Source of the DNA: Trypethelium eluteriae
Taxonomy: Eukaryota
Reading direction: 5' to 3'
DNA length: 24,550 nt
Assembly: GCA_051942245.1 (NCBI GenBank)
Contig: JAVECL010000032.1
Span: 62,001-86,550 of the forward strand
A program made the translations under genes and the position numbers. This document shows positions 6,680 to 12,333 of this stretch, piece after piece. The notes below the pieces were generated by a model. It made no database searches and was not told where the DNA came from. It saw only the letters and a program-made list of their open reading frames with translations. Every line of letters starts with the position of its first letter. Position 1 is the first letter of the stretch.

Positions 6680-8700
6680 ATGGCGGATAGACTCACTCGG
6701 TATGCTATTGTTTCGACTAGTTTGACTGCGAATAACTCTGCGTATTGACAATCCTTAGTATTGCCATTGTCAATAGCGACAAATGCAAACCCAAGAAATG
6801 CAGGCAGGAGTGCAAGAAATCTTGCCCTGTTGTCCGGACTGGCAAACTCTGCATCGAAGTGACCCCTGACTCCAAGATTGCTTTCATCTCTGAGCGCCTC
6901 TGCATTGGGTGCGGCATCTGTCCCAAGAAATGCCCATTCGACGCCATCAACATCATCAACCTTCCAACCAACCTCGAGACCCAAGTGACCCATCGATACT
7001 CAGCCAATAGCTTCAAGCTACACAGGCTACCTATGCCCAGACCTGGTCAAGTCTTGGGTCTTGTAGGAACGAATGGTATTGGAAAGAGCACGGCATTGAA
7101 GATCCTCAGTGGGAAACTCAAGCCAAACCTGGGTCGATATGACAATCCCCCCGATTGGGAAGAAATTCTAAAATATTTCCGGGGATCTGAGCTCCAGAGT
7201 ATGCTCGGAAGTATGCAGGCGATGTGAGTTGATGCTGATGGTCATGTAGACTATTTCACCAAAGTACTGGAGGATAGCCTCGAGGCTGTCGTGAAGCCAC
7301 AATATGTCGACCAGATCCCGAAAGCAGTCAAGGGTAACGACCGATCCGTCAACGCTCTCATCAAAGGTCGAGCACAGATGGACAATGTCGAGCAAATGAT
7401 GGATGTTCTTGGTAGGTTCCAATTATCTTGGGGCTATCATGCACTAACCTAGCTGAAGAATTGCGATATCTTGAGGACCGCAATATCGAACTTCTCTCTG
7501 GTGGAGAGCTACAACGGTTCGCCATTGCACTGACTTGTGTCCGCAAGGCCGATGTGTATGTCACTAGTGCAGATATTTTGTCTGACGGACTAACTCCTCC
7601 CCAGATACATGTTCGATGAGCCATCATCTTTTCTCGACGTCAAGCAACGTCTTGCTGCTGGTCGAATGATCCGAAGTCTACTTCGCGATGATGACTATGT
7701 CATTGTAGTTGAACACGACTTGTCAGTCTTGGACTACCTGTCCGACTTCATTTGTGTGCTCTATGGCAAGCCTGCTGTCTACGGTGTCGTCACATTGCCT
7801 CAGTCTGTTCGGGAAGGAATCAATATCTTCCTTGACGGACATATTCCAACTGAGAATCTACGTTTCCGAGAAGAGTCGCTTCAGTTCCGTATCGGAGAAG
7901 CAGGTGAAGACTTTATGGTCGATAAGTCACGTGGCTACGGCTATCCAAACATGGAAAAGACACTTGGTGACTTCCACCTTACTATCCAAGCCGGCCAGTT
8001 CACCGACTCTGAAATCATTGTTATGATGGGTGAAAATGGTACTGGGAAGACTACTTTCTGTAGAATGCTTGCCGGCGCCGAGAAGCCCGATGGCACCAAG
8101 AAAATCCCGGCAATGAACATAAGCATGAAGCCTCAAAAGATTACCCCCAAGTTTCAGGGCACAGTCCGTCAACTCTTTTTTAAGAAGATCAAAGCGTCAT
8201 TCTTGAGTCCGCAATTTCAGACTGATGTGTACAAACCCCTCAAGATGGATGATTTCATTGACCAAGAAGTGCAAAACCTCTCTGGTGGTGAATTGCAACG
8301 CGTGGCCATCGTTCTTGCCCTTGGCATCCCTGCCGATATCTACCTTATCGACGAACCGAGTGCCTATCTCGACTCCGAGCAGCGTATCGTCGCTGCGAGG
8401 GTGATTAAACGTTTCATCATGCACGCTAAGAAGACGGCTTTCATCGTCGAGCACGACTTCATCATGGCCACCTACCTTGCCGACCGCGTCATCGTCTTCG
8501 ATGGTCAACCTGCCATCAACGCCCGCGCACAGGCACCGGAGAGCTTACTCACTGGCTGCAACAAGTTCTTGAAGAGTCTCGACGTTACCTTCCGCCGTGA
8601 TCCCAATTCATACCGTCCACGCATCAATAAGCTCGACTCACAGCTAGATCACGAACAGAAGCTCTCTGGAAATTTCTATTTCCTAGAGGAGGAGAGCTGA
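6680..8700 (+). CDS. RLI1: ABCE1/Rli1 Fe-S ABC ATPase (ribosome recycling), about 604 aa. Exons: 6680-6699, 6759-7198, 7250-7411, 7459-7555, 7605-8700
   Basis: Spliced N-terminus [31 protein letters not shown] and [14 protein letters not shown] (two 4Fe-4S clusters). Two nucleotide-binding domains ([24 protein letters not shown] twice, DEPS). C-terminus [28 protein letters not shown]. Exons total 1815 nt, in frame. Confidence 0.97.
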
Positions 8701-8944
8701 AAAGGGCGTCCCAAAGAATGATGGCCCTCCACGCAAAGGACCCCACAATGCACCCCGTGTACTGAGGTCGTTAGCGAGAAGGAGCAAGAGACATAATAAA
8801 CAGCTAGGAGGCGGACTTCCTGACGAAGGGGCCGCGGAGGAGGATGAAGACGAGGACGGCGATGCACGGTGGCAGCGATCTACCTCCTGTGCCTTCACAG
8901 CCCTTGGTCCTATCATATTAAAGCTGGAGTTTCTCGCAAAGTAG
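8687..8944 (+). other. AUG-less +1-frame ORF overlapping the RLI1 stop codon (85 sense codons); candidate recoded C-terminal extension
   Basis: Open between TAG 8684-8686 and TAG 8942-8944. Translates [85 protein letters not shown]. The ORF is directly seen; its translation is unproven. Confidence 0.4.
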
Positions 8945-9578
8945 AGAAAAGGATAGACTGGGTAGGAAGAGAAGCGTACGGGTCAAGCTAGGTGATCGCT
9001 GTCTGGCACCTTTGGTAGCTGTTAGATGGTTCTCGAAACACAGGACTATACCATCATCCAAAGGAGTTCGCTCCGACGTCTGGAGGACGTCTCATGAGAT
9101 AAGGCGGTGAAAAACTTATTTTCTGTAGGAGTTCAATCAATCATTAGATAATCGCGCTTGATTTTCACAGGCTCCAATGGCGATTAACATTGCGGAAATT
9201 GAAATTGTGTACCTGCCTTTTGACTTAGGGTTGAACGTGAGAGAGATGATGATACAGAGGCAGCGACCTTCCATCAGTAAGATATCTTCCACTATTGGGA
9301 CAAGTGCCATGACCATACGATCTCATGCATCCCATTTGGAAAAAAATAGACACCATGAATAATCAATGACATGCATCGAAGCACTTGTTCATGCGTGCAC
9401 TCAGACCCGCAATATAACGATATTAGTCCAGAGCTTACCACATATGCCTGCAGCTAATCGACAGCGTGACGACCTTGCTGACTGCATCTGCTTCGATTTC
9501 AAGAGTTTACTCAATTACATACACAGAATCGCTTCTCCTCACTATTGCCATCTTCCTTCGACTAAAGCAACCTCGTAA

Positions 9579-12333
9579 TCACTCCTTCGCAGAATTAGGC
9601 TCGACCTCCTCGATCTCTCCTTCCTCACTTCCAGATTGCAGTGCGGGATCCTCCTTGGGTGGTTCCGACGACTTGTGGCGGCGCTGTGGCGAATGGGAAC
9701 CGTAGTCGCGGCGTTGTCGCTGTGGTACCACAAAAGAATTACACATTAGCTTTCAAGTTTGAATTTGACTGTTGGGGGCTACAAGTGAAGGAGTACGTGA
9801 AGAAATAAACTTTTACAGCTCCACACGGTTACGCCACGATGGCTACACCGGAATCTGGAAAGCTGTCCCTTCTTCAGAGAAATGTAGCAGGCATAGAAAA
9901 AGTGTTCAAGACACTCATACCCATCCAAATCTACAAGGCTGCGTCATGTGGACTGTGCCAAGTGTAGATATCAGGCTCGGTTTCAGGAACAGGGGTACAA
10001 CTCGTAAAGAGGCAGCCCACCTTATGCAAATAGAGGCCCTCACTGGCCTCACTCTCCTCACTGCGCGGGCGTCGACCCAAGCTGGCGGACCCACTGCCGC
10101 GGTCCTCAGCTCCGGTGCCTTCGCCATAGTCGAGCGCTCGGCTCTTCGATCGCAGGTCAGAGCGCGAGACATAGCCCCTCTCTCTTTCGGCCTCACGCTC
10201 CCGCCGCGCGACATCGTGATTCGTGCCGCCAAACCAGCTATTGCGGCGGTCGCGCCAGTCACGGTCGTCACGCGTGCTGCGTGCGCGCGGCGAGCGAGGC
10301 GGTGGAGACAGGCCCGTGGTGCCGGTGCGGTGGTGCTGACGCTCGCGGTCGGCGATGGCTTTGCGGCGGTCGGCTTCGTAGGGATCGGCTTCTGGGCTGC
10401 GCGTGCGACGGGTGGTGCGGTCGCGGTCGCGGTCACGATCGCGGTGGGAGCTGGAGGCGCCGTTGCGGGGGTCGTGACGGTCGTGGTGGCGGCGTGGGTG
10501 CTCGCGTGTGGTGTCGTCGGCTTTCTCGCGGAGGCGGCGCTGGAACTTGTCGAAGGCTGCCTTACGAAGGTCGTCGGAGTCGAGAGCTTTGTATTCGGGG
10601 GTGTCTTCGACGCGTGAGCGGACGCGTTCCCAGGTATCTTCGAGTGAGACGGGTGGATTGAGGTGCTTGATGCATGAACGAAGATCGTCAATCGCACGAC
10701 GTTGACGCTTTTCGATGTGATGGGATGATTCTTCAAGCTTCTTTGAGAGCTTTTCCTTCAGGCGGTCGAAGATGAGTTGGAGGGAATCAGTGTCAAGATT
10801 TGCGGTGCGACGGTTATTGCGCATAAATTTGAGGAAGTCGTCAAAAGAGGTCTGCGGAATAAGCTCGAAGCGCTGGTCTTCTATAACATCAAGGACATCA
10901 TTACGCTTTGCGCGAAGGGTTGCCTCGTCTTCTTCAACGACGTCCCAGAAGAAATCGAGAGGTGTTGACCCTGGCTGGCCCAGCATATCGGTGTAGCGGT
11001 GGTCGTCTTTAAACAACGGGTAAACATTCATCCATTTAGAGCCCGCTTTGACGTGTCCTTTGGCTCTCAACTCGCCCAGGAGCTCTTTAAAAGCATCGCG
11101 ATTTTTGCGTTCACGGCGATATTTGAGAACCTTCTCTCTTTGACGGCGTTCATTCCAGTCGCGTTCGAGCGTTTTAATGTGATTTTCAAACACACCGAGT
11201 ATCTCAAATTTTTCAAGGGTTCGGAATTTGGGATCATTCTGGAATTTCTCGTTGGACTTGATACGCTCTTGGGCATCAAACCAGCGAGTGTACGGTTCCA
11301 GTCTCATAGACCCAAGAATATCAGCAAGCTCGTCAACCGCAGCTTTGCGCGCGGCTTCTTCTTCTTCGTTGTGCTGGCGGCGGAGCTCTGCGACGTATTC
11401 TTCGAAGAGAGCGCGACGCTCATCTTCGTTATCGGTCGATCGGAATATTGTCTCGTCCTGGATGATTGGTCGGATTGTTTTCCAGCGGGAATAATAGACA
11501 ATCTCGGGGTGTCGTCTGAGCATTATGCCAAAGTCATTGCGGAGCTTGGCGACCCTCTCCTTCTCTCGCTCCTTCTCCTGTTCGCGTTGCTGCAACAGAT
11601 ATTTCTCAAAAGCAAGCTTTCGATCTTTGGGATCTTTCACAGCCCGGTAATGTGGGTCTCTGGCGCAAGCCTCTACCATTTGCTGGAATGTCCAGTCTTG
11701 TTGTACGCCAACTCGTTTGAGCAATTTGAAAAACGCAGCTTCAGCCTCCTCGGCAGAACCAAAATTGGTCTCCTCGGAGCCAGGTATAGCAGCAGCTCTA
11801 AACCCATCAGCAGAGCCGTATCCGAACTGTCTGTCGTGGCCTGTTCTCTCATGGGCACTCCATGGCTCATTGCGCTCATTCTGCGAATTATACTGTTGCG
11901 ACGAATACGGTGGCCGAGAGAAGGTGGAGGCGCCCCCAGCAACGAATGTTTGTTGACTGAAAATCAGTATTAGTAGGGTATTTAGTTTTTCGAGGGAAAT
12001 CAACCTACGTGGTACTGGGTCGCTGAGCAGATCGCTGGGGTGGCTCTGCATCCTTGAACTCCTGTGGCATTTCCCATGTTGTCTGATTCGTTTGCTTGTT
12101 GTGCCAATACTTGCGGCCATCAGAACTGTATTCCGTCCATGGAGAATTCTTGCGAGCTCTCTATTGTTCCTCGTTAGTGCGTATCAGGATAGCTTGGAAG
12201 TAGCACAACTCACTTCAGCCGGTGTCATCAAGGCTTCTGGCTTCTCCCATTGCGTTTCCTTGGTCTGGCTGTTGTAGTAGTAAGTTCTACCATCCGGTGC
12301 CTGGGCCGGCTGCCACAGAGCTACACCGTTCAT
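9579..12333 (-). CDS. PRP40: Pre-mRNA-processing factor 40 (U1 snRNP WW/FF-domain protein), about 782 aa. Exons (minus): 12333-12214, 12160-12009, 11956-10021, 9719-9579
   Basis: Two WW domains (WQPAQAPDGRTYYYNSQTKETQWEKP; WTEYSSDGRKYWHNKQTNQTTWEMP) and multiple FF repeats (EAAFFKLLKRVGVQQDWTF; RDAFKELLGEL; GSTPLDFFWDVVE). R/D/S-rich tail, then a last exon ending QSGSEEGEIEEVEPNSAKE*. Exons total 2349 nt, in frame. Confidence 0.93.
9921..9952 (-). other. Candidate 32-nt stop-containing cassette (poison) exon in PRP40 intron 3
   Basis: Branch CTGAT 9974-9970 and acceptor CAG 9955-9953. The exon reads TCC ACA TGA with an in-frame stop at 9946-9944, and donor GG|GTATGA starts at 9920. Confidence 0.45.

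Follow-up and report, generated by a model that had tools for sequence, protein, structure and literature searches.

Why should an open reading frame begin at the stop codon of the gene for a ribosome recycling factor? The question is raised by a stretch of 24,550 nucleotides from Trypethelium eluteriae (NCBI GenBank assembly GCA_051942245.1, contig JAVECL010000032.1, positions 62,001 to 86,550 of the forward strand; below, the window, numbered from its first letter), in which RLI1, known as ABCE1 in mammals, is followed directly by an open frame in the +1 phase. An initial annotation of the window had proposed that AGC-UGA-A at the RLI1 stop is a dedicated +1 frameshift site that adds 81 amino acids to Rli1, or else that unrecycled ribosomes translate the frame. 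By comparing related loci, we found that this downstream open reading frame (dORF) is conserved and under coding constraint, that its phase relative to RLI1 varies, and that a conserved, covarying RNA hairpin follows it. We propose that translation of the dORF is coupled to termination but independent of frame and is carried out by ribosomes whose release or recycling at the RLI1 stop went wrong, a reading to which we give about an even chance (roughly 0.5).

The frame behind RLI1 in the window and in its relatives

Pfam matches to Fer4_RLI, Fer4, and ABC_tran in the upstream exons bore out the identification of the gene as RLI1. Its last 199 residues align to residues 410 to 605 of yeast Rli1 (608 residues) and to residues 404 to 598 of mammalian ABCE1 (599 residues); because the alignments run nearly to the ends of these proteins, the stop is the family's normal C terminus, and RLI1 is complete without the dORF. 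The 3′ coding end reads GAG GAG GAG AGC TGA, and in-frame readthrough of the TGA (8698 to 8700) would add six residues, KGRPKE, before another TGA. The +1 frame opens after a TAG at 8684 to 8686, contains sense codons from 8687 to 8941 with no Met among them, and closes with TAG at 8942 to 8944, in each respect as annotated. In a second assembly of this species, from run X1, a single contig spans 8300 to 9300 with three substitutions and no indels, which makes an assembly frameshift at 8680 to 8705, flagged earlier as a possible artifact, unlikely. One of the substitutions (8859 G>A) turns GGC (Gly) into GAC (Asp) in the acidic run and is nearer the relatives' consensus; the remaining two lie at 8622 and 9113.

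By itself, the open frame in the window is unremarkable, a chance event of 1 to 6%. From base composition, the probability that a frame stays open for at least 81 codons is 0.014 to 0.032 per frame, and 91 of the 1,801 stop-free runs in the window reach at least 85 codons. The minus strand is likewise open here (8683 to 8982, 99 codons), and this minus-strand open reading frame (ORF) has no Pfam match.

Relatives were taken from metagenome RLI1 loci, with the last 199 residues of the window's RLI1 as the query. The query matched 588 stretches, of which 531 were confirmed and the best 80 kept (locus numbers below carry the prefix L). The RLI1 stop was located in 76 of the 80 fetched loci and in the window; L041, L048, and L058 end upstream of it, and L080 is too short behind it. 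L043 offers 107 nucleotides past the stop and L042 almost none. Among these best 80 of the 531 confirmed loci, 48 entries carry a dORF directly behind the RLI1 stop, and from them we drew a set of 43 unique loci, including the window, on which the counts below are based. The requirement that no stop intervene discarded nothing, since every locus with an acidic block was open from the RLI1 stop to that block.

Coding tests covered the 40 to 80 codons between the RLI1 stop and the last residue of the acidic run. The frame that encodes the run of Asp and Glu (the D/E frame) is free of stops in all 43 loci. Over the same interval the other two plus-strand frames are open in 1 and 2 loci and the three minus-strand frames in 15, 19, and 17, and in shuffled intervals the median probability of an open frame was 0.11 per locus. 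The ratio of nonsynonymous to synonymous differences (pN/pS), obtained from Nei-Gojobori counts on nucleotide alignments of 22 pairs, was 0.52 in the D/E frame, with single pairs ranging from 0.34 to 0.75. It was 1.05 in each of the two shifted plus-strand frames and 1.06, 0.60, and 1.07 in the minus-strand frames, of which the one at 0.60 has its third codon positions in common with the dORF frame. Runs of inserted or deleted bases came in multiples of three in 23 of 27 cases (P = 4e-8), and Asp and Glu codons are freely interchanged among relatives. Purifying selection was also seen within each phase class, at 0.48 for L014-L019 (frame 0), 0.39 for L013-L016 (+2), and 0.43 for L007-L012 (+2). 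On this comparative evidence, the dORF is a real plus-strand coding frame under moderate purifying selection, and the earlier impression that the +1 frame looks like protein was well founded.

A gene on the minus strand under the region was considered and rejected. Minus-strand frames are open in merely 15 to 19 of the 43 loci and have stops in 24 to 28, the low pN/pS of one of them is a shadow of the dORF frame, and the minus-strand ORF in the window lacks a Pfam match.

The dORF peptides share a layout more than a sequence. They often start with (E)KG[IV]P, continue with a variable stretch that is often basic or rich in Ser, Thr, and Gly, proceed to a motif resembling G-L-P-D-E-E (recovered by a loose pattern in 27 of the 43 loci), and finish with a run of Asp and Glu. 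Their length is 44 to 142 codons (median, 64), and in 22 to 23 of the 43 loci the frame terminates no more than three codons past the acidic run. At L005, L006, and L021 the variable part holds a long insertion rich in Arg and His, and the peptides of L005 and L006 end in ...NEDFG, with no plain D/E run. The dORF is also present at L036, where an intron sits before the last seven RLI1 codons.

Two groups of loci lack the dORF. One comprises L044, L047, and L049-L057, among which L053 and L054 end in FFLDNTGI, matching the yeast chain to its aligned end; the other consists of more distant eukaryotic sequences (L060 and L064-L079). The carriers are probably filamentous ascomycetes, an assignment that draws on the initial annotation and on the contrast with the yeast-type loci.

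A profile built from the 43 peptides matched 103 proteins at an E value of ≤0.001 among 1.84 billion representatives. The matches are 43 to 142 residues long, the sole exception being P0067 with 572 amino acids. Nineteen of the 20 matches inspected are ORF calls of the same element in other assemblies, and the 10 clusters of ORF calls that we looked up are nameless and come from metagenome or run assemblies only. None of the 43 peptides matched Pfam at E values up to 0.1, and the ESM Atlas gave no usable match for the dORF peptide. With the 85-residue frame as the query, a word-index search restricted to proteins of 46 to 149 residues returned three word-sharing candidates, none with an E value of ≤0.01. 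None of the named protein sets that were queried (Pfam and the looked-up clusters) contains the peptide.

The junction with RLI1 and the hairpin behind the dORF

If the dORF is translated, how would ribosomes reach it? Its phase relative to RLI1 is +1 in 27 of the 43 loci (the window among them), +2 in 11, and 0 in 5, and the changes of phase trace to one-base differences in short A/G runs directly after the stop. The RLI1 stop itself is kept throughout (TGA in 40 loci, TAA in 3) and is followed by A in 37 loci and by G in 6, never by C. The codon before it is AGT in 23 loci, TCT in 5, AGC and GCC in 4 each, TCC in 3, AAC in 2, and TCG and GCT in 1 each.

The region just upstream of the stop offers little room for a start. 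Conservation of the peptide and of its frame sets in at the RLI1 stop. In the window and at L001, L025, L027, and L033, a stop two to four codons upstream of the RLI1 stop closes the dORF frame, and at the frame-0 loci the dORF must start past the RLI1 stop. A dORF-frame ATG within the preceding 12 codons is present at 10 of the 38 loci with nonzero phase, 8 of which have it exactly three codons before the stop, and is absent from the window. At L004, L009, L011, L023, L030, L046, L062, and L063, the RLI1 codons AAT-GAG or GAT-GAT yield an ATG at that position. RNAalifold, run on the 27 +1-type loci from position −9 to position +80, returned 0 pairs and no conserved structure near the stop; the conserved hairpin lies ~170 nucleotides past the stop in the window.

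Across the 43 aligned loci there is no conserved ATG, no conserved shift codon, and no conserved stimulatory structure nearby. Judged from these alignments, entry into the dORF must be confined to a few nucleotides around the RLI1 stop and would have to work in any phase and without a conserved start codon. Given this point of entry, scanning-dependent initiation is unlikely. Together with the varying phase, it also excludes that a dedicated +1 frameshift site is the general route, and the role that had been assigned to AGC-UGA-A is not supported. The initial annotation had proposed a test in relatives for a conserved ORF with synonymous-biased substitutions and a conserved shift site; the ORF and its substitution bias are there, and the +1 phase and the shift site are not conserved.

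Behind the acidic run, two blocks of nucleotides are conserved whether or not the ORF has already ended, and the blocks pair with each other. In an alignment of 20 loci, analyzed with RNAalifold and by pair counts, 23 pairs form helices of 14 and 9 pairs, with compensatory double changes at 16 of the 23. Paired cells make up 92.4%, versus 78.7% in shuffles, and 0 of 500 shuffles reached the observed value on all five measures; when the partners were slid by 1 to 3 columns, pairing was at most 52.8%. Because G-U cells outnumber A-C cells (63 versus 11), the hairpin belongs to RNA of the RLI1 sense. In the window, its fold has a minimum free energy of −53 kcal/mol (z = −2.6), and 0 of 200 shuffles were as stable.

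A covariance model of the hairpin matched 29 of 81 sources, corresponding to 24 unique loci, always on the plus strand and directly behind the dORF, and it had no match elsewhere in the 336,690 bases searched. The match in the window runs from 8864 to 9017 and scores 89 bits. A search of Rfam with window positions 8000 to 10500 (both strands, E values up to 1) returned only sR44 at 8425 to 8469, with 16 bits against a gathering score of 45 bits. We had also considered whether CTAAC or CTGAC behind the acidic run marks the branch point of an intron, or a 5′ splice site on the minus strand, and we dropped both ideas, since the flanking blocks are the covarying strands of the hairpin. Between the helices, which covary, lies an 8-nucleotide bulge that is nearly invariant over the 20 loci, which suggests a putative sequence-specific binding site.

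The hairpin lies close to the end of the conserved frame. Its 5′ strand could be located with a simple sequence pattern at 20 of the 24 hairpin loci, and in 15 of these 20 the dORF stop falls ~5 to 8 nucleotides ahead of the first pair, a distance that includes a 5-nucleotide offset derived by hand from the layout of the alignment. In the window and at some other loci, that stop is gone and the frame continues across the 5′ strand of the hairpin, which accounts for the extra 24 codons of the initial annotation. The 81 residues counted there exceed what is conserved. As the alignments indicate, the conserved coding frame is its first ~57 codons (8699 to 8869), and the last ~24 codons enter the RNA hairpin, where the peptide is not conserved. 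Table 1 lists the features.

Table 1. Positions in the window of the RLI1 end, the dORF, and the hairpin
Feature	Positions	Strand	Description
Last RLI1/ABCE1 coding exon	7594..8700	+	Stop-to-stop open frame with the true exon start inside it; Pfam ABC_tran; alignment to yeast Rli1; ends ...FYFLEEES
RLI1 stop TGA, next base A	8698..8700	+	Putative point of entry into the dORF
Entire +1 open frame	8687..8944	+	85 sense codons and TAG; codons past ~8869 are lineage-specific and overlap the hairpin
Conserved dORF core	8699..8869	+	57 codons in the +1 frame: EKGVPK, variable basic stretch, GGGLPDEG, acidic EEDEDEDGD
Best-conserved part of the peptide	8813..8863	+	Codons G39 to D55: G-L-P-D-E-E-like motif and D/E run; from peptide alignment and consensus
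Hairpin 5′ strand	8871..8895	+	Helix 1, 8871-8885; helix 2, 8887-8895; from alignment, RNAalifold, pair counts, and window fold
Hairpin 3′ strand	8973..9003	+	Helix 2, 8973-8981; helix 1, 8990-9003; 8-nucleotide bulge, 8982-8989, between the helices

The convergent neighbor of RLI1 in the window (9931 to 12183, minus strand) is a PRP40-like gene with FF domains (Pfam FF and FF_PRPF40A). The C-terminal part of its product is rich in Arg, Asp, and Ser and is encoded in a tract of 67 to 73% G+C at ~10050 to 10650.

Possible routes into the dORF

Because the phase varies by lineage and entry is confined to the vicinity of the stop, the dORF would be translated by ribosomes terminating on RLI1, in any frame, and only by ribosomes leaving that ORF. 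They could enter in two ways: a post-termination 80S ribosome that Rli1 has not split would resume translation near the stop, or a ribosome stalled at the stop would be pushed past it. Either would begin at the stop, in any frame and with no AUG, and the anatomy of the dORF is consistent on each count with what has been reported for Rli1/ABCE1 depletion. In this respect the proposal of translation by unrecycled ribosomes survived the comparison, as an argument from anatomy. Both routes would rise under limiting Rli1/ABCE1, and because both depend on the activity of the very protein that this mRNA encodes, dORF output would track Rli1 insufficiency on its own mRNA. The RLI1 mRNA would then act as a sensor of its own activity, as the initial annotation had suggested. 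The product could be either a free peptide or a tail on Rli1.

The 3′ untranslated region (UTR) of the RLI1 mRNA would on this proposal form a module of two parts, a start-less dORF that runs from the stop and a bipartite hairpin behind it. A ribosome terminating at the end of the dORF would abut the hairpin or open its base, which makes a switch in the fate of the mRNA plausible, with the hairpin serving as a downstream effector or as a barrier.

Several alternatives bear on the same observations. In conventional termination-reinitiation, a 40S subunit or ribosome retained after RLI1 would start again at an AUG or near-cognate codon beside the stop. Such reinitiation would be constitutive and would need no shortage of Rli1. 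It would draw on the upstream ATGs at 10 loci, 8 of them at the same distance from the stop, and on the nucleotide-level conservation just past the stop. Many of the 103 ORF calls found with the profile begin with M-R/I-V-E, in line with an ATG three codons before the stop, but these calls are a biased sample, since callers require a start codon. Such an ATG is absent, moreover, from 28 of the 38 loci with nonzero phase and from all 5 frame-0 loci, and the window has four open codons upstream of its stop, none of them ATG. We consider this mode of entry unlikely.

In RF2 and antizyme, +1 shifting is classically triggered by slow decoding of a stop codon, and this counts in favor of a programmed +1 frameshift of that type at the RLI1 stop, which would add a tail to Rli1; the lineages with phases +2 and 0 would then have switched to −1 shifting or to readthrough. 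The majority phase fits this idea, and nearly all of the 27 +1 loci read TGA-A, so that the first +1 codon is GAA or GAG. Knockdown of ABCE1 has also been reported to give a +1 fused reporter product (PMC7544199). Purifying selection was nonetheless kept at the loci with phases +2 and 0. The P-site codon varies, moreover, taking in both serine families, Ala, and Asn; none of these codons permits re-pairing in the +1 frame, and the 80 nucleotides after the stop hold no conserved pairs. Locus L014, in frame 0, carries TAA-G, generally a tight termination context. A programmed shift has, in our estimate, a slim chance of being correct.

Slimmer still is the chance that an alternatively spliced or intron-retaining RLI1 mRNA loses or skips its stop and so leads into the dORF, or that the dORF is carried on a separate short sense transcript. 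Many relatives do have a small intron 7 to 10 codons before the stop, and at L021, L022, L055, and L059 reading through it enters the dORF frame without a stop, so that retention would give an Rli1-dORF fusion; the 572-residue ORF call P0067 is such a read-through fusion. But the dORF frame is reached in this way at only 4 of the 17 intron-bearing unique loci, roughly as expected by chance, and intron retention was rejected as a general route on that count. The window and many other loci are intron-free at this place, and no GT occurs in the window between the FYFLEEES codons and its RLI1 stop. Likewise, the intron-free, mRNA-like contigs L007, L010, L012, L016, L033, L037, and L046, with RLI1 ORFs of 602 to 610 residues, keep the stop and then the dORF. 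Even a separate transcript would not supply a start codon.

Contig L016 is spliced RNA, being 99.5% identical to the genomic locus L036 with three plus-strand introns removed. At L016 2584/2585 it also lacks a 53-nucleotide segment (L036 3832-3884) whose ends are GT-AG on the minus strand. The absence of this minus-strand intron from L016 shows that the convergent transcript is spliced at or close to its 3′ end and that it overlaps or adjoins RLI1 mRNA, the two having been fused into one contig during assembly. We therefore discarded L016 as proof of a long RLI1 3′ UTR.

That the dORF is untranslated, its open frame a by-product of RNA or DNA elements (a purine-rich tract, the hairpin) or of a minus-strand gene, is very improbable: the frame in the window could be open by chance and the opposite strand is open too, the hairpin within the region is conserved as RNA, and the first dORF codons vary little synonymously, but across relatives this frame has no stop in any of the 43 loci, whereas the other five are open in 1 to 19 of 43, only this frame has an excess of synonymous differences, its indel runs keep to multiples of three, its Asp and Glu codons interchange freely, and the minus-strand frames are broken by stops in 24 to 28 loci, the 99-codon ORF having no Pfam match.

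Against translation of the dORF by unreleased or unrecycled ribosomes there are also points to be weighed. The first three dORF codons, GGC ATC CCA, vary little synonymously (GGC in 22 of 26 loci), and conservation at the start of the dORF may lie at the level of RNA rather than peptide. The hairpin was detected in 24 of the 43 unique dORF loci, so it is either not obligatory or has diverged in the rest. The independence from frame is argued from comparison among loci, and with 27 of 43 loci in phase +1, a +1-specific mechanism is possible in the majority class. The nearby upstream ATGs at 10 of 38 loci would equally suit ordinary termination-reinitiation. The contig that is demonstrably spliced RNA is merged with the transcript of the convergent gene and does not fix the RLI1 3′ end. 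Finally, feedback on RLI1 expression, if any, might be homeostatic or might act as a counter of the kind formed by the AMD1 tail.

Known systems and implications

Translation of 3′ UTRs after failed recycling has precedents. As recounted in PMC5972666, Young et al. (2015) found that depletion of Rli1 in yeast lets 80S ribosomes reinitiate no more than ~10 nucleotides from the main stop, in three frames, with no preference for AUG, and with small peptides as products. According to that account, the dORF matches each sequence-level feature of the process: the start near the stop, the choice of any frame, and the absence of an AUG. It differs in that the yeast events are a genome-wide, unselected by-product, whereas the dORF is one selected frame, maintained in dozens of lineages on the mRNA of RLI1 itself and accompanied by a hairpin. 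In human cells with limiting ABCE1, ribosomes stalled at stop codons continue in or out of frame into the 3′ UTR (Annibaldis et al. 2020; PMC7544199). The human effect, unlike the dORF, was seen on a reporter and transcriptome-wide, and the excerpted text of that report describes no conserved 3′ UTR frame and none on the ABCE1 mRNA.

The tail of AMD1 (PMC13025110), as outlined in that source, resembles the dORF in being a conserved coding extension behind a normal stop that a minority of ribosomes translate and in that events at its end regulate its own mRNA. The AMD1 tail, however, is in frame, depends on readthrough, and stalls ribosomes at the next stop, whereas the phase of the dORF varies and its end consists of an acidic run and a hairpin. 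As for features of a readthrough extension, the dORF is in frame at 5 of the 43 loci, the base after the RLI1 stop is A or G (37 and 6), and no structure is predicted near the stop.

With RF2 (prfB) and antizyme the dORF shares the setting, namely, the mRNA of a termination factor or sensor, slow decoding of a stop as the signal, and the idea that activity is sensed by its own message. It is unlike them in that their shift is a fixed +1 at a specific shift-prone codon with stimulators nearby, none of which is found at the dORF loci. In addition, theirs is a shift without which no functional protein is made, whereas RLI1 is complete at its stop. Termination-reinitiation in caliciviruses and victoriviruses, as described in PMC5972666, likewise places a second ORF at or next to the first stop and depends on ribosomes that have finished the first ORF. 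The viral systems rely on an AUG at the junction and on an upstream tethering element, whereas no AUG is present in 28 of the 38 dORF loci with nonzero phase. Among the closest literature is also a report that human ABCE1 is controlled by an upstream ORF (PMC8389594).

The titles and abstract openings of the papers retrieved on Rli1/ABCE1 reinitiation, autoregulation, readthrough, and dORFs contain no name, family, or description of this element, which agrees with the initial annotation that none was known. In that literature, 3′ UTR translation on failure of recycling and autoregulatory recoding are both known kinds of event; we found no description of their combination in a start-less, phase-agnostic, conserved form.

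More tentatively, we suggest that filamentous ascomycetes possess a dedicated detector of recycling failure in the mRNA of the recycling factor, in which translation of the dORF, its basic-acidic peptide, or both would reset RLI1 expression via the hairpin. This further step is possible, although we would not call it probable.

The purpose, if any, of 3′ UTR translation by unrecycled ribosomes is described as an open question in the field (PMC5972666), and a selected, start-less, phase-tolerant 3′ UTR frame on a recycling factor mRNA would make that question directly testable. Recoding screens that assume a fixed relation between frames would overlook elements of this kind. If such a detector exists, it would be the first case in which selection has put the "aberrant" 3′ UTR translation known from Rli1/ABCE1 depletion to functional use, and a eukaryotic counterpart to the autoregulation of RF2 that works with no fixed frameshift. 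It would add a new logic to the translation factors that sense themselves, as RF2, antizyme, and the start contexts of eIF1 and eIF5 do.

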